Assembly (NCBI GenBank): GCA_964650485.1
Contig: CAZYTX010000003.1
Coordinates: 57,114 to 121,113 of the forward strand
Length of the DNA stretch: 64,000 nt
DNA from: an uncultured bacterium
GTDB lineage: Bacteria > RBG-13-61-14 > DATKZS01
Reading direction: 5' to 3'
In this document: one piece after another, positions 1-10,082 of the stretch
Layout of the letters: each line of letters begins with the position of its first letter
Numbering within the stretch: the stretch's first letter is position 1
Program-made: the position numbers and the translations under genes
The notes under the pieces: model-generated
What the model was told of the DNA's origin: nothing
The model's database searches: none
What the model saw: only the letters and a program-made list of their open reading frames with translations

Positions 1-1034
1 GGGCTTCCCACCTGGCGCTGCGTGGTCCCGTCCGGCCTGGGCACGTCCACCACCATCTCCCTGGCTTTGGTGAGCGGGTGCTCAGCCATCTCCGCCACCG
101 AGAGCACCGGCTCCACGCAGGCGTCCACCTCTTTGAACACGGCCTCCCACTCCTTCCTGGTCTTCTTTTCAAACTCGGCCTGGAGCGCCTCTTTGAGCTC
201 GCGGCCGCCCGACATCTGCTTGTCCGCCAGGTCCTCCCTGCCAAGGGCGGTGACCATTGCCTTAAAGAACTGCGGCTCCAGGGAGCCAACGGACATGTAC
301 TCCCCGTCCTTGGTGCGATAGAAGTCGTAGTACCCGCCGCCGTTCAAGGGGTTCCCCTCGCGCTCGGGCGGCTCCCCCCCGGCCAGGTAAGCCATGGCAT
401 GGAGCGCGCCCAGGTGCATGGCCCCGTCGGTCATGCTGATGTCAATGCACTGCCCTTCGCCGGTGCGCTCTTTGTGATATAGCGCTGCCAGGATAGCCAC
501 CACCGCGTTCAGTCCGCCGGCACACTGGTCAGCCACCTGTATGCCCAGGGGCAGTGGCCCGGAGTCCTTCCTGCCGGTGTAGGACATGACCCCGGAGAGC
601 GCCAGGTAGTTGGCGTCGTGGCCGGCCCGGTCGCGGTAGGGCCCGTCCTGGCCGTAGCCGGTAATGGAGCAGTAGATCAGGCCGGGGTTGTGGGCGCTCA
701 TGCACTCGTAGTCCACGCACAGCCTCTTCATCACCCCGGGCCTGAACTGCTCCACCAACACGTCGAAGTTCTTCACCAGCCTGGTTATGACCCCGGCGCC
801 CTCCGGGTTCTTGAGGTCCACCATGATGGACCTCTTGTTCCGGTTGATCTCGCGGTGGGCCGCGGAGACCTCGCCGTCCATGGGCGGCATCAGGGTAAGC
901 AGGTCGGGCAGGCCCGGGGCTTCCACCCGTACCACGTCGGCGCCCATGTCAGCCAGCACCATGGTGCCGAAGGGCCCGGGCAGCAGCCTGGTGAAGTCCA
1001 GCACCTTTACTCCTTTAAGCGGTCCGCTCATCAT
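1..1034 (-). CDS. CoA-transferase family III (CaiB/BaiF-like) protein; C-terminus runs off the window start
   Basis: Reverse-strand translation from ATG at 1032-1034 reads MMSGPLKGVKVLDFTRLLPGPFGTMVLADMGADVVRVE...GYGQDGPYRDRAGHDANYLALSGVM..., the typical family III CoA-transferase N-terminal and Asp-containing core. The frame is open to position 1, so it is absent from the ORF track. Confidence 0.7.
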   Translation of the reverse strand, partial: MMSGPLKGVKVLDFTRLLPGPFGTMVLADMGADVVRVEAPGLPDLLTLMPPMDGEVSAAHREINRNKRSIMVDLKNPEGAGVITRLVKNFDVLVEQFRPGVMKRLCVDYECMSAHNPGLIYCSITGYGQDGPYRDRAGHDANYLALSGVMSYTGRKDSGPLPLGIQVADQCAGGLNAVVAILAALYHKERTGEGQCIDISMTDGAMHLGALHAMAYLAGGEPPEREGNPLNGGGYYDFYRTKDGEYMSVGSLEPQFFKAMVTALGREDLADKQMSGGRELKEALQAEFEKKTRKEWEAVFKEVDACVEPVLSVAEMAEHPLTKAREMVVDVPRPDGTTQRQVGS

Positions 1035-1073
1035 TCGCTCCTGTTTGATACCCGCCTTGCCTTTGCGGGATTT

Positions 1074-1502
1074 TCAGCCCATTCCAAGGACCTCTTTGAC
1101 CTTTGCAACCACCAGGTCCTCGGACCCGGGACCCTTCATCACGTACCCTTTATGGTTATTCCTGAAACCCTCGGAGAACTCGGCCACCTCTTTGCTCATC
1201 TGTTCCACCCAGTCCTTCTCCTTGCCCGAGTAGATTATAAAGGGGGTGCTTGCAAGCTCCTCGTAAAGGGCATGCACCACCGCTCCCACCTGGGCGCCGA
1301 GCATGTCCGGCATCTCCATGTCCAGGACGAACATGTCCACCGAGCCGCGGATGGACGGGTCGGAGAGCACCCTGGTCTCCAGGTCCGAGGCGTGCTCTGC
1401 GCTTATCAGCTCGAACACGGGCTCGGAGAAAGTCTCCTTCAAGAGCTCCCTGGCAGTGGGGCTGTCGTCCACGTGCACAACTACGTATTTTCCTTCTCTC
1501 AT
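1074..1502 (-). CDS. Single-domain response regulator (CheY-like receiver)
   Basis: 142 aa: VVVHVDDSPTARELLKETF...DMFVLDMEMPDMLG...IIYSGKEK, with the receiver acidic pocket, phospho-Asp and conserved Lys pattern. Confidence 0.75.
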   Translation of the reverse strand: MREGKYVVVHVDDSPTARELLKETFSEPVFELISAEHASDLETRVLSDPSIRGSVDMFVLDMEMPDMLGAQVGAVVHALYEELASTPFIIYSGKEKDWVEQMSKEVAEFSEGFRNNHKGYVMKGPGSEDLVVAKVKEVLGMG

Positions 1503-1511
1503 CTTGTCCTC

Positions 1512-2189
1512 CTACTCGTCTGGCATGGCCTTGGTGCGCGCCCGCACCGGGTCGCGTATGCGGCTTGTGTGCTTGTCACCGGCATGGCTTCTTACCATCC
1601 GCTCCTCGTCAATGAAAGCGTAGCTGATCCTGACCGACAGCTCGTACAAGGTGAAGGTGAGCCCGTAAAAGGGGTTGTCCGGGACCTCGCACCCGCTGGT
1701 CTGCACCTTCACTCCAGCGGCCTTGAACAGGTGTCTCGCTCTTTTCAGGTGATAGGGCGAGCTGACCACTATGCACGAGCTCCAGCCGCGCTCTCGCATG
1801 ATCCCTGCCGAGTACCTGGCATTGCCGATGGTGTCCATGGCCTCGCGCTCCTCCACTACGTCTTCCCCGGGCACTCCCATGGACACGGCGACTTCCTTCA
1901 TGACCGAGCTCTCGTACAGGTCCTTGTACGTGTTGCCGCCGGTCATGATCATCTTTTTGGCAAGGCCTTGCCTGTAAAGCTGGACACCCGCCTTCACCCT
2001 GCGGGCAAGCTCGTCCGCAGGCTCTCCCTTCTCGTCCACCGGCGGACCGTAGCCCAGCACCACGATGACGTCCGCGGGCACGAGGTCCTGCTGTGGTATG
2101 AGAATGGGGTTCAGCGCAGGCTTTGAGCAACCCCCTGCCAAGGCCAGGAAGAGAAGCGGGAACAGAAACCTTGAACCACTCTTTTTCAT
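1512..2189 (-). CDS. DUF218 (YdcF/SanA/ElyC-like) domain lipoprotein
   Basis: MKKSGSRFLFPLLFLALAGGCS lipoprotein signal and lipobox, then VIVVLGYGPPVDEKGEP...MIMTGGNTY, typical of DUF218. Start taken at the internal ATG (2187-2189) that yields the signal peptide; the ORF extends to 2258. Confidence 0.6.
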   Translation of the reverse strand: MKKSGSRFLFPLLFLALAGGCSKPALNPILIPQQDLVPADVIVVLGYGPPVDEKGEPADELARRVKAGVQLYRQGLAKKMIMTGGNTYKDLYESSVMKEVAVSMGVPGEDVVEEREAMDTIGNARYSAGIMRERGWSSCIVVSSPYHLKRARHLFKAAGVKVQTSGCEVPDNPFYGLTFTLYELSVRISYAFIDEERMVRSHAGDKHTSRIRDPVRARTKAMPDE

Positions 2190-2838: not shown

Positions 2839-5049
2839 ATGTATAAGAAGATGAGCATGCCCTTCCACGGCCGCGAGCTTACCATCGAGGTCGGGAAGCT
2901 GGCCAGGCAGGCAAGCGGTTCCGCGGTGGTGTCCTACGGCGACACCATAGTACTGACAACGGTGGTTATGGACAGGACTCCGGGGACCCCCGGCGACTTC
3001 ATCCCCCTCACGGTCAACTACCAGGAGAAGTTCTACTCTTCTGGCAAGATACCGGGCGGCTTCTTCAAGCGCGAGGGAAGGCCCACCGACGTGGAGACAC
3101 TGAACTGCCGATTAATTGACCGGCCCATCCGGCCCCTGTTCCCCAGGCACTGGTTCTACGAGACACAGATTATGCCCACGGTCCTGTCCGCGGACGGAGA
3201 GAGCCATCCCGGCGTGCTGGGCATGATCGCGGCTTCCGCGGCGCTCGAGGTCTCCAAGATTCCTTTCGAGGGACCGATCGCAGGGGTGCAGGTCGCACGC
3301 GTGGGCGAGGAGTGGGTGGTGAACCCCGGCTACTCCCAGATCGAGGAGAGCAAGGCCGAGCTGATAGTGGCCGGCAGCCGCGAAGGCATAGCCATGGTTG
3401 AAGGCGGCGCTGAGATGGTGCCCGAGGAGGAGATAATGGAGGGCATCTTCCATGCATACGAGGAGATCAAGCCTCTACTCGATATGCAGGACCAGCTCCG
3501 GCAGGAAGTGGGTGTGCCCAAGATGGAGCACGAGGTCATCGAGCCCCCGGAGGAACTGTCCCAAAGGATCGAGCAGGAGGCGAAAAAAGACCTGGAGGAG
3601 GCCTGGCGCATCGCGGACAAGCAGGAGCGGCAGGACCGGGTGCACCAGGTCTGGGACGGGCTGCACAAGAAGCTGGTGGAGGAGGAGACGGACCTTGGGC
3701 CCGGCGAGCTGTACTTTACCGAGATCAAGGACAAGATAGACAAGGACATTGTAAGGGGCAACATAATCCGGGAAGGGGTCAGGGCTGACGGCAGGGACTT
3801 CACTACGGTGCGGCCGATCTCCGCTGAGGTCCGGGTCCTGCCCAGGACGCACGGCTCTTCTCTTTTCACCCGTGGCGAGACCCAGGCCATGGCCGTTGTC
3901 ACCCTGGGCACGCGCAAGGACGAGCGCAAGATCGAGCGTCTTGAGGAAGATTATTACAAGACCTTCTTCCTGCACTACAACTTCCCCCCTTACTCTGTGG
4001 GCGAGACCAAGTTCAGGCTGGGGCCCGGCAGGAGGGAGATAGGCCACGGCTACCTGGCAGAGCGGGCCCTTGCCAGGGTGTTGCCCGAGCACGAGGATTT
4101 TCCCTATACCATCAGGGTGGTGTCCGAGATCACCGAGTCCAACGGGTCCAGCTCCATGGCCACGGTGAGTGGCGGGTCGCTCTGCCTCATGGACGCGGGC
4201 GTGCCGGTCAAGGGACAGGTGGCCGGCGTTGCCATGGGCCTTGTAAAAGAGGCCGAGGGCAAGTTCCACGTGCTCACCGACATAATCGGAGACGAGGACC
4301 ACACCGGTGACATGGACTTCAAGGTGGCCGGCACCAGGGACGGCGTGACCTCGGTTCAGATGGACATAAAGATATCGGGCGTGGACAAAGAGATACTTGG
4401 CGGGGCGCTTGCGCAGGCCCGGGAGGCCAGGCTGCACATACTGGACGAGATGGACAAGGTCATTGCCGAGCCAAGGACAGAGCTCTCGCCTTACGCGCCC
4501 AGGATAGTGACTCTCCATATACCGGTGGAGAAGATAAAAGACGTGATCGGCCCGGGCGGCAAGATGATCCGCAGCATTGTCGAGCGCACCGGGGCCACCA
4601 TTGACGTTGAGGACGACGGCACCGTGAAGGTGGCGTCCTCGGACTCGGAGGCCAACAGGAAGGCCATCGAGATCATCGAGCAGTTGACCGAGGAGGCCGA
4701 GGTGGGCAAGGTCTACACCGGCGAGGTGAAGAAGGTCATGGACTTCGGGGCCTTCGTGGAGATACTGCCCGGCACCGAGGGACTGGTTCACATCTCGCGG
4801 CTCGACCGCGGTCGTGTTGAGAAGGTCACCGACGTTGTGCAGGAGGGCGACAAGATCACGGTAAAGTGCATTGGCATTGACAACGAGGGAAAGATAAGCC
4901 TGTCAAGGGAGGAGGTCCTGGACCAGCAGCCCGAGGCGTCCAGGAAGCCCAGGAAGTCCGGACCCGGCGGCTCCGGCGGCCGGGGAGGTCCTGGCGGCCC
5001 CAGGCCCCCGCGCGATTCCAGGCCGTATCCTCCACGCGACCAGGGGTAA
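2839..5049 (+). CDS. pnp: Polyribonucleotide nucleotidyltransferase (PNPase) with Gly/Pro/Arg-rich C-terminal tail
   Basis: MYKKMSMPFHGRELTIEVGKLARQASGSAVV..., two RNase PH domains, then KH and S1 (GKVYTGEVKKVMDFGAFVEI). AGGAG 8 nt upstream of ATG 2839. The C-terminus carries a roughly 40-aa PGGSGGRGGPGGPRPPRDSRPYPPRDQG extension. Confidence 0.95.
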   Translation: MYKKMSMPFHGRELTIEVGKLARQASGSAVVSYGDTIVLTTVVMDRTPGTPGDFIPLTVNYQEKFYSSGKIPGGFFKREGRPTDVETLNCRLIDRPIRPLFPRHWFYETQIMPTVLSADGESHPGVLGMIAASAALEVSKIPFEGPIAGVQVARVGEEWVVNPGYSQIEESKAELIVAGSREGIAMVEGGAEMVPEEEIMEGIFHAYEEIKPLLDMQDQLRQEVGVPKMEHEVIEPPEELSQRIEQEAKKDLEEAWRIADKQERQDRVHQVWDGLHKKLVEEETDLGPGELYFTEIKDKIDKDIVRGNIIREGVRADGRDFTTVRPISAEVRVLPRTHGSSLFTRGETQAMAVVTLGTRKDERKIERLEEDYYKTFFLHYNFPPYSVGETKFRLGPGRREIGHGYLAERALARVLPEHEDFPYTIRVVSEITESNGSSSMATVSGGSLCLMDAGVPVKGQVAGVAMGLVKEAEGKFHVLTDIIGDEDHTGDMDFKVAGTRDGVTSVQMDIKISGVDKEILGGALAQAREARLHILDEMDKVIAEPRTELSPYAPRIVTLHIPVEKIKDVIGPGGKMIRSIVERTGATIDVEDDGTVKVASSDSEANRKAIEIIEQLTEEAEVGKVYTGEVKKVMDFGAFVEILPGTEGLVHISRLDRGRVEKVTDVVQEGDKITVKCIGIDNEGKISLSREEVLDQQPEASRKPRKSGPGGSGGRGGPGGPRPPRDSRPYPPRDQG

Positions 5050-5144: not shown

Positions 5145-5804
5145 ATGGCAAGCTACATATACATGAAGGTCCTGGAGTCGCAGCCCGGACGCTACGACCG
5201 TGGGATCTCATGGCTGAGCTTTGGGAGGGCGGACAGGGTAAAGCAGAGGATAGCTGAAGAGATCGTGCGGCCCGGGATGAAGGTCCTGGAGATAGGGGCC
5301 GGCACCGGGTCGTTCGCTATCATGGCCGCGAAAAAGGGCGCAGAGGTAAAGGGGTTCGATCTCTCACCGGCCATGCTTTCCGTGGCCAGAGAAAAAGTGG
5401 ATAAAGCCGGTCTTAATGACAAGGTCGAGCTCGAGGAGATGGGCGTGGCCGGAATGGACGGGATCGAGGCCGCGGCCTTTGACCTGGTGGTGTCCACGCT
5501 GGTGTTCTCCGAGCTCTCCGCGCAGGAGCAGGACTACGCATTGATTCATGCCTTACGCAGCCTGCAGCCGGGCGGCAGGCTGGCGCTCGCGGACGAGTCA
5601 AAGCCGGAGAGCACTCTCAAGGCCGCCCTGCACCAGGCCGTCCGCATTCCCCTCATGATAATTACATTCGCCTTGACCCAGACCTCGACAAAAGCGGTGC
5701 AGGACCTGCCCGAGCGGGTGGCGAGAGCGGGCTTTGTTATCGAAGCGGTGGAGCGCAAAAACCTCGGCTCCTTCATTTACCTGGTGGCGAGAAAGGAGGA
5801 GTAA
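5145..5804 (+). CDS. Class I SAM-dependent methyltransferase (UbiE/COQ5-like fold)
   Basis: RYDRGISWLSFGRADRVKQRI..., VLEIGAGTGSFAIMAAKKGAEVKGFDLSPAML (motif I / post-I) and LVVSTLVFSEL. The stop TAA 5802-5804 abuts the next ORF in the same frame. Confidence 0.8.
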   Translation: MASYIYMKVLESQPGRYDRGISWLSFGRADRVKQRIAEEIVRPGMKVLEIGAGTGSFAIMAAKKGAEVKGFDLSPAMLSVAREKVDKAGLNDKVELEEMGVAGMDGIEAAAFDLVVSTLVFSELSAQEQDYALIHALRSLQPGGRLALADESKPESTLKAALHQAVRIPLMIITFALTQTSTKAVQDLPERVARAGFVIEAVERKNLGSFIYLVARKEE

Positions 5805-6863
5805 TTGGGCCTTGCCGGCTGGTTGGTGGCTTACACGGCCCGGTGGCTTCCGCACTCCGCGGACACGGGGCTGAAAGCCATTGGCAAGCCAACCGAGGAC
5901 TCGCCCGTTATTGTGACCTCGAACTTCTCACTCACCGTGAACAGGGTGACAAGGGCGCTCAAGGGCATGGACCTGTGGCTGCTGGTGGCCAACACCCAGG
6001 GGATAAACGTGTGGTGCGCTGCCTGCGGGGGCATGTTCACCGAGAACCACGTGATTGACGCCATCAAGGTGGCCGGGCTGAGCGAGCGGGTCTCTCACAA
6101 CCAGGTCATTCTCCCCGCACTGTCGGCGCCCGGCATTGATTGCAATGCAATAAAAGACGAGACCGGGTTCCGGGCAAGGTTCGGGCCGGTGCAGGCCGCG
6201 GACATCCCCGCATACCTGGCCCATAAAAAGAAGAAGACCAGTGAGATGAAGCGGTTCAAGTTCGATCTCAGCCACCGCCTGGACATGCTCTTTCCCATGA
6301 ACTTCCCCATATACCTCCCGTTCGCCGTTGTGCTCGCCGTCTTCTGGCCCGGGCTGCTCCTGGGCGCGACCCTGATCTTCTGGGGAGCGCTTTTGTTTTT
6401 ATACCTGTTCGTGCCCTGGATACCGGGAAAGACCGGCTGGACCCAGGCCATCGTGTCCGCCGGCCTGTTCGTGGCCATGTGGGCCGGGTTTGACCTTTAC
6501 TTCACAGGGGACCCGCTCCTGCACTACAAGTGGTTCATGGCAAGCTTCGCAATTTTCCTGGCCGCGGGGTTCGACCTTGCAGGAATAGCCACCGGCAGGA
6601 AGTCGGACGCCGAGCAGTTGGTGCAAAAGCTGGGCATCAAGAGCATGGGCAGCCTGTTCAAGGAAAAGGACCTGGGCGAGATCACCCTGGACCGCGAGAA
6701 GTGCGACGGTTGCAGGACGTGCTTTAACATCTGCCCGGTGGGGGTGTACAACGGCCTTGACCAGGAAAGGAAGATGACCTTCCAGGACCGGGGGGCATGC
6801 TTTGCCTGCTCGGCCTGCGTAAAGCAGTGCCCGCAAGAGGCCCTGAGCCTGGCTGGTATCTAG
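5805..6863 (+). CDS. Fused HgcA-like corrinoid protein / HgcB-like 2x[4Fe-4S] ferredoxin (HgcAB-like)
   Basis: N-terminal SPVIVTSNFSLTVNRVTRALKGMDLWLLVANTQGINVWCAACGGMF closely matches the HgcA cap-helix signature N(V/I)WCA(A/G)GK, with Cys71 in the position of the Co-ligating Cys. Downstream GFRARFGPVQAADIPAYL resembles HgcA. Four predicted TM helices follow (IYLPFAVVLAVFWPGLLLGATLIFWGALLFLYLFV; AIVSAGLFVAMWAGFDLYF; WFMASFAIFLAAGFDLAGIA). The C-terminus has two CxxCxxCxxxCP motifs (CDGCRTCFNICP, CFACSACVKQCP). TTG start with GGAGG 5 nt upstream, translationally coupled to the methyltransferase. Confidence 0.6.
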   Translation: MGLAGWLVAYTARWLPHSADTGLKAIGKPTEDSPVIVTSNFSLTVNRVTRALKGMDLWLLVANTQGINVWCAACGGMFTENHVIDAIKVAGLSERVSHNQVILPALSAPGIDCNAIKDETGFRARFGPVQAADIPAYLAHKKKKTSEMKRFKFDLSHRLDMLFPMNFPIYLPFAVVLAVFWPGLLLGATLIFWGALLFLYLFVPWIPGKTGWTQAIVSAGLFVAMWAGFDLYFTGDPLLHYKWFMASFAIFLAAGFDLAGIATGRKSDAEQLVQKLGIKSMGSLFKEKDLGEITLDREKCDGCRTCFNICPVGVYNGLDQERKMTFQDRGACFACSACVKQCPQEALSLAGI

Positions 6864-6912
6864 TGCCTGTTGCGAAACTCTCATTTTCAAAGAAAGACAC
6901 AGTTCATTCCTC

Positions 6913-7115
6913 TCATGCCAGGGCTTGAGCCTTTTCCTCCAGAGATTCAACGAGGTCTTGAATTGCGTCCACTTCTTTTCCCTCGAAATAGGCTTCTCCG
7001 CATTGAACGCAGACCCAGGCGGGAACCGCATCGAGCGTCAGGTGGCAGCCCTTGCGGTCAACGTGGAAAAGAGTGACGCCCCTTTCATCTCACCCTGGCA
7101 ATGAATGCATTTCAT
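6913..7115 (-). pseudogene. YgiT-type zinc-finger (MqsA-like) antitoxin gene interrupted by a -1 frameshift
   Basis: The reverse strand reads MKCIHCQGEMK, then, shifted by one base, RGVTLFHVDRKGCHLTLDAVPAWVCVQCGEAYFEGKEVDAIQDLVESLEEKAQALA*. Inserting one base in the AAA/GGGG run restores a 68-aa YgiT zinc finger with two CxxC pairs. It lies in a low-GC islet. Confidence 0.45.
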
Positions 7116-7153
7116 TTTCCACTTTAATATTTTGCCTTCTCTAGATTAGTCTT

Positions 7154-7426
7154 TCAGTAAGTTAGAAGAAGCCGGTCAGCAACGACCTCATTCTCAAGCG
7201 TCTTGCCTCCCATTTGGAACCTTTTAAGCATTGATCGTCCGCAGTTTACAAAGGCCTCTCTCTCAAATAAGCCGGATGGTATACTCAGCTCGCATAAGTG
7301 ATTGCCCGACTTCTTCTTTCCATCTATGCTCAAGGCAACGTAGGCCCCTCTCTTTTTGCAAGACTCTATTTCCTCGAATAATCCCTCTATATCGAATGTT
7401 TGGGCACCGTAAGGAAAGACCTGCAA
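7154..7426 (-). CDS. Hypothetical 90-aa protein, candidate toxin partner of the zinc-finger antitoxin
   Basis: ORF in low-GC DNA ending 38 bp upstream of the zinc-finger gene, which is the toxin-antitoxin order. I recognise no family, and it could be spurious. Confidence 0.25.
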   Translation of the reverse strand: MQVFPYGAQTFDIEGLFEEIESCKKRGAYVALSIDGKKKSGNHLCELSIPSGLFEREAFVNCGRSMLKRFQMGGKTLENEVVADRLLLTY

Positions 7427-7480
7427 GCATATTTGAGCTACAGAGCTTCAAGATTAAATGACTATGTGGAACCTCGACTA

Positions 7481-8059
7481 ATGGATGTCAAGGAAGCTAA
7501 AAGCCGGTTTATAGAACTTAAGAAGAAGTTGAGACCATCATGTCATTTGCCGATGAATAAGCAAAAAGGGAAAAAGAAGTCGCCGGCATACTTCACTGGC
7601 ATAATAAATATGCTGATTGAGAAGAATATAGGAGATCTTGATTGCGATTATGACCCGAGAAAGATGGTAGTTTTTTTGAAAGATGGCAAGCCTGCTCGAA
7701 CCATGGCAAGGAGAATAGACGGTGCTTTCCCATCCACTATTAATCCTGTCGCTATATGGGAAATAAAGGAATACTACTATACGACAACTTTCGGAAGCAG
7801 GGTGGCTGACGGCGTTTATGAAACCCTTCTTGATGGAATGGAGATCGAGGAAGCGGCAGAGAATGAGAGTCTTAAAGCCCTACATTACTTGATGATAGAC
7901 TCTCATTATACGTGGTGGGAATGCGGCAGATCTTACATTTGCAGGATCATTGATATGCTTCATATGGGATATGTTGATGAAGTGTTGTTCGGCAAAGAGG
8001 CTATTGAAAGACTTCCAGCTATTGTAAGAAAGTGGAGGAGATTAAAAGTCGGAAGATGA
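7481..8059 (+). CDS. Hypothetical protein with a possible PD-(D/E)xK nuclease-like motif
   Basis: Low-GC ORF with codon usage unlike its neighbours. RIDGAFPSTINPVAIWEIKEYYY fits a D...(D/E)xK catalytic signature. ATG at 7481; the track ORF begins at TTG 7400. Confidence 0.45.
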   Translation: MDVKEAKSRFIELKKKLRPSCHLPMNKQKGKKKSPAYFTGIINMLIEKNIGDLDCDYDPRKMVVFLKDGKPARTMARRIDGAFPSTINPVAIWEIKEYYYTTTFGSRVADGVYETLLDGMEIEEAAENESLKALHYLMIDSHYTWWECGRSYICRIIDMLHMGYVDEVLFGKEAIERLPAIVRKWRRLKVGR

Positions 8060-8165
8060 ATCTTACCCCTGTAGGCTATGGCCGACTGCGGAAAAGACTG
8101 GCTTGCAGGGCTTGAAGAGCGGCTCTGTGCGTGATAACATTTGTTGGAATTGCTAGGGTGACTAG

Positions 8166-9425
8166 TTGGACATTAGCGAACAGGTAAGCAAGATGGCGCG
8201 CGATGCCCGCACTGCCTCCCGCGTGCTCTCCCGTCTCGACTCCGGGGCCAAGGACCGGGCGCTCCTGGACACTGCCGAGGCCCTTGTATCCCAGGCCGAG
8301 CGCATCCGGGCGGAGAATGAAAAGGACCTTGCCGAGGCCCGGAAGGCGGAGCTGCCCGAGGCCATGGTGGACCGGCTGACCCTGACCCCCGAGCGCATCA
8401 AGTCCATGGCCGACGGCCTTGTCGCGGTCGCGGCCCTGCCAGACCCTGTGGGCGAGGTCACCAGCATGTGGACCCGGCCCAACGGCCTCAGAATCGGACG
8501 CATGAGGATCCCTCTCGGTGTGATAGGCATCATCTACGAGTCCAGGCCAAACGTGACCGTTGACGCCGCGGGGCTCTGCCTCAAGTCGGGCAACGCCGTG
8601 ATCCTGCGGGGCGGCTCCGAGTCCATAAACTCGAACCGGGTGCTGGGCGAGGTCATGGTCGAGTGCGCCAAAGAGGCCGCTGTGCCCGAGGCTGCCATAC
8701 AGGTGATGCCCATGACCGACCGTGCCGCGGTGGACGCGCTGCTTTCGCAGGAGGACTATGTTGACGTGATAATTCCCCGCGGTGGGGAGGAGCTTATCCG
8801 CAAGGTGGTGGAGAAGTCCCGCATACCCGTGCTCAAGCACTACAAGGGGGTGTGCCACGTGTACGTGGACGTTGACGCGAACCCCAGAAAGGCCCGGGAG
8901 ATAGTGCTGAACGCCAAGCTGCAGCGGCCCGGGGTGTGCAATGCCATGGAGACCCTGCTGGTGCACGCGGCCGTTGCCGAGGACTTTCTTGCAAGCATAG
9001 TCACCCCCCTGGTCAAGGCCGGGGTGGAGCTCAGGGGCTGCCCGGACACCCGCAGGTTCGTGCCCGGCATGAAGGCGGCCACGGAAGATGACTGGTACAC
9101 CGAGTACCTTGACAAGATACTGGCCATAAGGCTGGTGGAGAACATTGACCACGCAATCGAGCACATCCAGGAGTACGGGTCGGACCACACCGAGGCGATC
9201 GTCACCGAGAACTACACCAACGCCCAGCGGTTCATACGGGAGGTTGACTCCAGCTCGGTCATGGTGAACGCCTCCACCCGCTTCTCCGACGGGTTCCAGT
9301 ACGGCCTGGGAGCAGAGATCGGGATCAGCACCTCCAGGCTGCACGCCTACGGCCCCATGGGGCTTTGCGAGTTGACGACCAGCAAGTTCATAGTGTATGG
9401 TGAAGGTCAGGTTCGCGAGTCGTGA
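8166..9425 (+). CDS. proA: Gamma-glutamyl phosphate reductase
   Basis: 419 aa aldehyde-dehydrogenase-family Pro[35 protein letters not shown] and catalytic Cys in [12 protein letters not shown]. Confidence 0.9.
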
Positions 9426-9440
9426 CTCACGGAGGACGCG

Positions 9441-10082
9441 GTGTACATAGGTATTTACGGCGGCACCTTCAACCCCATACACTTCGGTCACCTGCGCGCG
9501 GCAGAGGAGGTTTGCGAGGCGTTCAAGCAAACGCACGTGATATTCGTCCCCTCTGCAAACCCGCCTCACAAGGACAAGCAGGACCTGGTGGACCCCAACC
9601 ACAGGCTGAAGATGGTCAACCTGGCGGTGACCGGAAACCCCAGGTTCCAGGCCTCGGAGATAGAGATACAAAGAAGGGGGAAATCATACTCAATAGACAC
9701 AGTAAGGGCCCTGAAGCAATCCAACCCGGACGACGACTTCGCATTCATTATGGGCCTGGACGCCTTCCTCGAAATCGAGACCTGGCACAAGTACGACGAG
9801 CTTTTCCCCGAGTGCGACTTTATAGTCACCACCAGGCCGGGGTCCACCAGCCGGAGCTGCAACCAGGCCATTCCCGAGGCGGTGCGCGAGTCCTTCAAAC
9901 GGAAGAAGGGAACAAGGGAGTTCGAGCATTCCTCCGGCCGAAAGCTCTTCTTTGCGGAAGTGACCCTGATAGACGTCTCCGCAAGCTCCATAAGGGACAA
10001 GGTGCGAAAGGGCGAGTCCATACGCTACCTCATTCCGCGCAGGGTGATGGAGTATATCCACGAGCACGAGCTCTACAAGTGA
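9441..10082 (+). CDS. nadD: Nicotinate-nucleotide adenylyltransferase
   Basis: MYIGIYGGTFNPIHFGHL (HxGH nucleotidyltransferase motif); conserved proA-nadD-rsfS gene order. Confidence 0.9.
   Translation: MYIGIYGGTFNPIHFGHLRAAEEVCEAFKQTHVIFVPSANPPHKDKQDLVDPNHRLKMVNLAVTGNPRFQASEIEIQRRGKSYSIDTVRALKQSNPDDDFAFIMGLDAFLEIETWHKYDELFPECDFIVTTRPGSTSRSCNQAIPEAVRESFKRKKGTREFEHSSGRKLFFAEVTLIDVSASSIRDKVRKGESIRYLIPRRVMEYIHEHELYK

Follow-up and report, generated by a model that had tools for sequence, protein, structure and literature searches.

What might a methyltransferase do when its gene lies directly ahead of one for a membrane protein that resembles HgcA and HgcB, the mercury-methylating pair, joined in a single chain? 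This question is raised by two genes in a stretch of 64,000 nucleotides from an uncultured bacterium (GenBank assembly GCA_964650485.1, contig CAZYTX010000003.1, positions 57,114 to 121,113 of the forward strand), here called the window; coordinates refer to its first letter as position 1. A first, sequence-only reading had seen in these genes an S-adenosylmethionine (SAM)-dependent methyltransferase coupled to a fused HgcA-like corrinoid and HgcB-like ferredoxin protein. It had suggested a methyl relay from SAM via the corrinoid to a substrate that may not be Hg(II), or possibly a fusion by stop-codon read-through. We find that the pair is an ordinary, fairly divergent member of a catalogued two-gene module, the partners being CpaM and an HgcAB-like fusion protein. 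The two probably form a coupled unit that relays a methyl group from SAM to the corrinoid and on to an acceptor, which is probably something other than Hg(II).

Identity of the two proteins

Both open reading frames (ORFs) represent real genes rather than chance occurrences, since hidden Markov models (HMMs) match them with E-values of 4e-85 (the ORF of 219 amino acids) and 2e-116 (that of 352). The shorter protein scores 284.6 bits against NF043040, 'corrinoid protein-associated methyltransferase CpaM' (cutoff 180; model type 'hypoth_equivalog'), over the full length of the profile (1–216 of 216). The longer one scores 389.3 bits against NF043039, 'HgcAB-like fusion protein' (cutoff 285), with residues 6–348 aligned to positions 3–350 of 350. 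The likeness to HgcA that had been read from the sequence is borne out, albeit at a distance: the cutoffs for true HgcA (NF040863, 174.5 bits against 275, with only residues 15–179 aligning) and true HgcB (NF040864, 47.6 bits against 99) are not reached. Nor is the N-terminal domain an ordinary subunit of the corrinoid iron–sulphur protein (CFeSP), an outcome that would have undone the first assignment. Model NF003195 (CFeSP / acetyl-CoA decarbonylase-synthase gamma) gives 92.5 bits against a cutoff of 306 and is matched at positions 315–449 of 450 alone. Pfam assigns residues 10–137 to CdhD (PF03599, positions 259–386 of 387, that is, the last ~128) and adds matches to the Fer4 family. The protein consists of an HgcA-like corrinoid domain, a domain of four transmembrane (TM) helices and an HgcB-like ferredoxin, and is a member of the 'fused HgcAB' clade. 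This clade was first described by Podar et al. in 2015 (PMC4646819) and was found by Lin et al. in 2023 to be well supported and separate from the clade of single-subunit HgcA (PMC10083202).

The AlphaFold2 (AF2) model of the HgcAB-like protein, based on an alignment of 42 sequences, has a pLDDT of 88.3 and a pTM of 0.82. Its membrane helices, at residues 155–180, 182–205, 211–234 and 241–262, agree with the four hydrophobic helices of a Kyte-Doolittle scan and confirm the number first counted from the sequence. Stretches rich in lysine and arginine flank the membrane domain on both sides, suggesting that the N- and C-terminal domains lie on the same side of the membrane, presumably the cytoplasmic one. 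The best fold match in the PDB is the integrative HgcAB model 9a0b_A, with 284 columns that include the membrane domain. The CFeSP large subunits 4djd_C, 2ycl_A and 4c1n come next, matching the corrinoid domain only (129–139 columns, root-mean-square deviation 1.6–2.6 Å), and a PDB sequence search is concordant (4djd_C, residues 317–442). The likeness to the CFeSP large subunit (AcsC/CdhE, PF03599; 2YCL, 4DJD) thus lies in the Rossmann-type corrinoid domain, which superposes over ~130 columns. Unlike CFeSP, the window protein has no N-terminal [4Fe-4S] domain, TIM barrel or small subunit, is membrane-anchored and has a Cys ligand, and no methyl-tetrahydrofolate methyltransferase is encoded near the pair.

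A database search returned 583 homologues of the HgcAB-like protein at E ≤ 1e-10, the nearest being 68% identical, and 609 homologues of CpaM at E ≤ 1e-20, a similar number. The closest relatives of the window pair come from unclassified metagenome-assembled genomes (MAGs), Thermoanaerobaculia, Deltaproteobacteria and Pirellulaceae. With the other members of NF043039 (for example, Pyrococcus furiosus Q8U2U9 and that of Methanococcoides methylutens) the window protein shares the corrinoid domain with its cap-helix Cys, the four TM helices and the fused ferredoxin without a Cys tail; it differs in having a Cys at a variable position of the motif and in abutting cpaM in frame with no overlap. The features of the pair are collected in Table 1.

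Table 1. Features of the cpaM/hgcAB-like locus in the window.
Feature	Coordinates	Strand	Basis and remarks
cpaM, class I SAM-dependent methyltransferase, 219 amino acids, no cysteine	5145..5804	+	ATG start; ORF list and HMM
GGAGG, Shine-Dalgarno-like, within the 3' end of cpaM	5795..5799	+	read from sequence; 5 nt before TTG
cpaM TAA (5802-5804) abutting hgcAB-like TTG (5805-5807), translational-coupling junction	5802..5807	+	gap 0, same frame
hgcAB-like fusion gene, 352 amino acids	5805..6863	+	TTG start; ORF list and HMM
Corrinoid-binding domain (CFeSP C-terminal-like, Rossmann-type), residues ~10-141	5832..6227	+	PF03599; CFeSP structure matches
Cap-helix motif GINVWCAACGG, residues 66-76; Cys71 codon 6015-6017	6000..6032	+	alignment; AF2 helix 69-74
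Four-TM membrane domain, residues ~155-262	6267..6590	+	Kyte-Doolittle scan, charge flanks, AF2 helices
C-terminal 2x[4Fe-4S] ferredoxin domain, residues ~292-350, without Cys73-type Cys or terminal Cys pair	6678..6854	+	Fer4 matches

Conservation of the association

Relatives were collected by scanning one genome for each GTDB species with an alignment as query, which gave 599 confirmed relatives where a single-sequence scan of contigs had given none. The best 80 loci, cited below by their L numbers, were kept for all locus counts and classified by tblastn and ORF tracing. The METHYLTRANSFERASE adjacency is general: CpaM is encoded directly upstream of, or fused to, the corrinoid protein in 60 of the 66 fusion-type loci, and in 63 if nearby copies are counted. 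The arrangement is therefore a near-universal trait of the family and not a peculiarity of this contig, which would have spoken against the first reading. A CpaM homologue lies immediately upstream on the same strand in 48 of these loci; in two more the adjacent CpaM is cut by the contig end, in three it lies 0.7–1.8 kb upstream and three have no CpaM within the locus. None of the 14 canonical hgcA-hgcB loci, defined by NVWCAAGKG and a stop before hgcB, has CpaM (Fisher p = 4.5e-13 against the fusion type).

In the ten remaining fusion-type loci the two proteins are covalently joined. Six encode CpaM, corrinoid, TM and ferredoxin domains as one ORF of ~590 amino acids (L007, L008, L009, L010, L011 and L016; for instance L007:152-1927, L009:3260-5029 and L016:1523-3298). 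These fusions are found in MAGs of Desulfobacterales, Calditrichaceae and Lentimicrobiaceae. The other four, from Chloroflexota/Anaerolineales (L027, L053, L056 and L057; for instance L027:3125-4834 and L057:1407-3089), join CpaM to the corrinoid and TM domains in one ORF of 541–574 amino acids, with the ferredoxin encoded separately downstream. Both curated HMMs match on one polypeptide in the single-ORF fusions, above their cutoffs or, for two, near them. With two such architectures, fusion or fission must have taken place independently at least twice.

The pairwise divergences of CpaM and of the fusion protein are correlated across 56 loci (mirror-tree r = 0.76; none of 999 Mantel permutations reached this value). 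Among the database matches, many for CpaM and the fusion protein pair up on contigs of equal length, some of them already named CpaM and HgcAB-like by NCBI. Carriers occur in many bacterial phyla and, among archaea, in Bathyarchaeia, Methanofastidiosia, Hydrothermarchaeota, Desulfurococcales and Heimdallarchaeota. ORF tracing shows that overlap or abutment of the cpaM stop and the hgcAB-like start is the rule across the loci, which argues for coupled, stoichiometric synthesis of the two proteins. Taken together, conserved adjacency, covalent fusion of two independent kinds, coupled translation and co-divergence indicate that CpaM works in a single complex with the corrinoid/ferredoxin protein. 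The only recurrent third gene that clustering of the ORFs brought out around the pair in the 66 fusion-type loci is a TetR-like regulator, present in 13 of them, and the module therefore looks complete in itself. This TetR-family-like ORF lies directly upstream of cpaM (for instance L011:1335-2030) and is absent from the window.

A CpaM/HgcAB-like pair is also present in the chromosome of a cultured archaeon, Thermococcus atlanticus (L081:549-5760). Just ahead of the pair come an ArsR-type HTH_5 regulator and an HMA-domain P-type ATPase; a DUF302 protein and a second P-type ATPase follow it. Such a metal-homeostasis neighbourhood is not a conserved feature across the 80 loci.

Proposed methyl relay

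How could the module work? We infer the steps of a relay, the direction of methyl flow and an acceptor other than mercury. The HgcA-like domain would hold the corrinoid, whose lower axial ligand would be the thiolate of Cys71 in the cap helix. The fused 2×[4Fe-4S] ferredoxin would give the low-potential electrons that make or restore Co(I). CpaM would bind SAM and present its methyl group to Co(I), yielding methyl-Co(III), and the methyl group would then pass to an acceptor located where the four-helix membrane domain faces the cytoplasm. SAM-dependent methylation of its partner's corrinoid is thus the predicted function of CpaM. In work by Zheng et al. (2024, PNAS), SAM was shown to methylate purified true HgcAB via a Cys-thiolate-ligated methyl-Co(III) (PMC11588087). 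Because true HgcAB takes its methyl group from SAM and natural CpaM fusions exist, the relay is the most economical model and, of the ideas put forward from the sequence, the best supported. Its first half-reaction, methylation of Co(I) by SAM with a low-potential donor, would conceptually be that of MetH reactivation (SAM plus reduced flavodoxin) and of class B radical-SAM/TsrM-type enzymes. The SAM-binding folds are unrelated, and here a separate class I Rossmann methyltransferase would serve a membrane-bound, CFeSP-type corrinoid protein.

Several points weigh against the relay or its non-mercury acceptor. True HgcAB uses SAM without a separate methyltransferase (PMC11588087), and it is thus not obvious that methylating the corrinoid calls for a dedicated SAM-binding partner. 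A functional link is proved by adjacency, fusion and co-divergence, which do not, however, tell in which direction or by what chemistry the methyl group is transferred. As for the acceptor, P. furiosus and M. methylutens, both carriers of fused HgcAB, formed no methylmercury in whole-cell assays, for which the authors caution that uptake or expression could be responsible (PMC4646819). An archaeal query meant to show whether these two organisms carry CpaM had neither of them among its top 120 matches, which did include Thermococcus atlanticus.

A serious rival to the relay is repair in the manner of MetH, although we consider it unlikely. Here, CpaM and the ferredoxin would only reactivate oxidized Co(II) reductively with SAM, and the enzymes for the methyl donor and acceptor would be encoded elsewhere. 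Cobalamin-dependent methionine synthase is reactivated by SAM together with a low-potential donor of electrons, and the module holds both a SAM methyltransferase and a ferredoxin. However, the surroundings of the pair in the 66 loci hold no further conserved gene for a methyltransferase or for use of a particular donor, and in true HgcAB SAM is the catalytic donor.

The cap helix, the cysteines and mercury

Could the protein be a genuine mercury methylase, a fused HgcAB variant that loads its methyl group from SAM via CpaM? The cap helix and the cysteines bear on this directly. Cys71 aligns without gaps with the Cys of the canonical GINVWCAAGKGTF in ten canonical HgcAs from the genome loci, confirming that the Cys of GINVWCAACGG occupies the corrinoid-ligand position. 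In an alignment with 41 homologues, Gly66, Ile67, Asn68, Val69, Trp70, Cys71 and Gly75 are invariant across the fusion family, Gly75 taking the place of the invariant Lys in the AGKG stretch of canonical HgcAs. The Hg-MATE protocol lists the HgcA cap-helix motif as N(V/I)WC(A/S)(A/S/G)GK (PMC10087281). NVWCAACG of the window keeps the Cys and has CG for GK, and so falls outside this motif.

The fusion-family motif is mostly NVWCA[AS]xGG, or GINVWCA[AS]xGG when extended to the left. Position 74 within it is variable, and may be Gly, Asp, Ala, Val, Lys, Arg, Thr, Ser, Glu or Cys. Cys is present there in the window protein, in P0080 and in five loci (L001, L002, L003, L007 and L009). The second Cys beside the ligand Cys, to which the sequence-only reading had drawn attention, is therefore a minority lineage variant rather than a family feature, and we attach no functional weight to it.

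The ferredoxin contains two CxxCxxCxxxCP motifs (Cys300, 303, 306 and 310; Cys332, 335, 338 and 342), and all eight cysteines are invariant in the family. No Cys follows the second motif, the tail being PQEALSLAGI, which confirms that the C-terminal Cys pair of HgcB is missing. The same absence is seen in 55 of 61 fusion-family members, whereas canonical HgcB tails are rich in Cys and end in CC. In ND132, the HgcB tail cysteines and Cys73 have been implicated in handling of Hg (PMC11588087).

Compared with HgcA and HgcB of P. mercurii ND132 (NF040863/NF040864), the window protein has in common the corrinoid domain, the ligand Cys, a membrane anchor and a dicluster ferredoxin. It differs in having four TM helices, where canonical HgcAs show up to five hydrophobic peaks, and in having Gly for the motif Lys. 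Its ferredoxin is fused and has neither the Cys73-type Cys nor the terminal CC, and the module has a dedicated SAM methyltransferase that none of the 14 canonical loci possesses. Conservation of the cap-helix Cys within the GINVWCA core and the HgcAB model as best PDB fold match are what a mercury methylase would show, and the authors of the negative culture tests left intrinsic activity possible (PMC4646819). We nevertheless regard a mercury methylase as improbable. The scores for HgcA and HgcB both stay under their cutoffs, the canonical invariant Lys is an invariant Gly in the fusion family, the Cys73-type Cys and the C-terminal Cys pair of HgcB are absent, and two cultured carriers make no methylmercury; the Hg-MATE consensus protocol also urges caution with fused sequences (PMC10087281). 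The missing Hg-handling cysteines of HgcB, the replaced motif Lys and the two Hg-negative carriers together make it likely that the acceptor is not Hg(II).

Two further kinds of protein were encountered among the loci. A minority of fusion-type proteins (L036, L044, L049 and L051) have Cys-rich C-terminal extensions (for example, CSCPTC...CC) and may be intermediates between HgcAB-like proteins and HgcAB; L051 is also without CpaM. In a Verrucomicrobiota MAG (L080:4001-4990), the canonical NVWCAAGKG and a Cys-rich tail like that of HgcB (...GGDACCGEGGCCG) occur in one fused protein, and the 4 kb upstream of its gene contain no CpaM. This protein looks like a true HgcAB that is genuinely fused and stands apart from the HgcAB-like family.

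The CpaM methyltransferase

CpaM is matched by the Pfam families Methyltransf_25, Methyltransf_11, Methyltransf_31 and Ubie_methyltran, and among solved structures only by generic class I methyltransferases. Its motif I, of the GxGxG type, is VLEIGAGTG (residues 47–55). The family alignment shows conservation of Glu11, Pro14, Arg16-Tyr17-Asp18, motif I, Asp72, Asp113, Ser122-Glu123, Glu151, Pro154, Arg167 and Pro169. The window copy is, like other members of NF043040, encoded directly upstream of the corrinoid protein. It differs by the Ala in motif I (GAGTG) that replaces the common Cys (GCGTG) and leaves the protein with no cysteine at all. No Cys is conserved in the family outside this motif I position, indicating that CpaM has no ArsM-like metal(loid) site; a minimal SAM-binding core of this kind fits a role directed at the cofactor. 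An assignment as an ArsM-like metalloid methyltransferase was considered and rejected, the score against NF008823 being 49.6 bits for a cutoff of 263 and conserved As(III)-binding cysteines being absent.

CpaM might also work independently, as a small-molecule or quinone methyltransferase like UbiE/MenG, with the corrinoid protein acting at another step on the same membrane substrate or merely being co-regulated. The next-best models for CpaM are indeed UbiE/MenG, MpqE and ArsM-type methyltransferases, JGI labels its homologues UbiE, and the partner is embedded in the membrane. We hold little belief in this alternative: those models lie far below their cutoffs (TIGR01934, for UbiE/MenG, gives 60.7 bits against 158.35), the Cys triad of ArsM is absent, and a covalent fusion that arose at least twice, together with tight co-divergence, argues for a physical complex.

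The junction between the two genes

The junction reads ...AAGGAGGAG TAA TTG..., and the sequence bears out the first description of two in-frame ORFs with one TAA between them and GGAGG 5 nt ahead of the TTG. No nucleotide separates stop and start. Counted from the TTG, the N-terminus of the HgcAB-like protein falls within one or two residues of those of the 41 aligned homologues, making this start credible; at the junction, both window proteins have their normal termini. The in-frame TAA/TTG arrangement is peculiar to this contig. In the seven closest relatives, among them L001–L004, L006 and L012 at 56–65% identity, ORF tracing revealed stop/start overlaps of the TGATG or GTGA type, with the second gene in a different frame. 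The simplest reading of the window junction is coupling by termination and re-initiation, the shared frame being a one-in-three coincidence.

Programmed read-through of the TAA into a tri-domain CpaM-HgcAB-like polypeptide, the alternative raised from the sequence alone, finds encouragement in the common frame, the single stop without a gap and the natural single-ORF fusions of other lineages, but is extremely unlikely: a common frame is expected by chance about once in three, the closest relatives overlap out of frame, natural fusions contain a linker of ~25 residues (from the end of the CpaM profile at ~218 to the start of the HgcAB-like profile at ~243) of which there is almost nothing here, the strong Shine-Dalgarno sequence and a TTG at the normal N-terminus of the family indicate re-initiation, an Rfam scan of the whole window detected no element, and TAA with a U after it is held to terminate translation efficiently in bacteria.

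Genomic neighbourhood

The pair has a guanine-plus-cytosine (GC) content of ~0.60, equal to that of its flanks, and recent horizontal acquisition of the pair was rejected on this basis. Upstream are a ribosomal protein S15 gene, confirmed by Pfam, and an ORF of 778 amino acids which, from its translation, we take to be polynucleotide phosphorylase and which stops 95 nt before cpaM. Downstream is an ORF of the aldehyde dehydrogenase family that looks like proA, followed by what, reading their translations, we presume to be nadD- and rsfS-like ORFs. Neither Rfam elements, a cobalamin riboswitch among them, nor tRNAs were detected in scans of the whole window, and a promoter and terminator scan gave counts at or below those expected from shuffled sequence.

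Directly downstream of the pair, positions 6900-8100 form an island of low GC content (0.42–0.47, against ~0.60–0.65 in the flanks), which looks like a foreign insertion between the hgcAB-like and proA-like genes. It encodes a DUF7687 protein of 219 amino acids (7400..8059, forward strand; PF24736, E = 5e-83) and, on the reverse strand, an ORF of 90 amino acids (7154..7426) with no Pfam match. Three long ORFs (438–531 amino acids) at 618-2126 (forward strand), 3475-4791 (reverse) and 8076-9671 (reverse) run antisense to, or overlap, real genes, namely the DUF218 and response-regulator genes, the polynucleotide phosphorylase-like ORF and the proA-like ORF. None of the three is a gene, shadow ORFs of this sort being typical of DNA with a high GC content; antisense ORF clusters were found in the loci too.

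Significance for the HgcAB-like family

The pair is not new as such: each partner already has a curated NCBI model, one of which takes its name from the association, and fused HgcAB has been in print since 2015 (PMC4646819). A 'ubiE methyltransferase' beside hgcA-like genes of Nitrospina has also been mentioned in passing (10.1101/648329). A literature search found no paper on 'CpaM', NF043040 or NF043039. The searchable literature does not discuss the strictness of the CpaM association (60 of 66 loci against 0 of 14), the natural CpaM-HgcAB-like fusions or their link to the SAM result of 2024. The window copy itself offers no new biology beyond a divergent example in a housekeeping neighbourhood.

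Extending the relay from SAM to corrinoid to the family as a whole, we tentatively suggest, with rather less confidence than in the relay itself, a complete and portable enzyme of Bacteria and Archaea. It would load the methyl group of SAM onto a Cys-ligated corrinoid and pass it on, as the equivalent of a carbanion or radical, to an electrophilic acceptor that is not Hg(II), a chemistry that would be sister, and perhaps ancestral, to mercury methylation. Soft metals or metalloids other than mercury are candidates for the acceptor, as are substrates associated with the membrane; the ArsR-type regulator and a heavy-metal P-type ATPase beside the pair in T. atlanticus hint at a metal-related role.

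Fused hgcAB genes matter to mercury biogeochemistry, since they are routinely caught in hgcA surveys and there inflate or confuse estimates of methylation potential. CpaM upstream together with the NVWCA[AS]xGG motif provides a simple genomic discriminator from canonical hgcAB. The association with CpaM, which is a property of the family and not special to this window, makes the function of these proteins directly testable.

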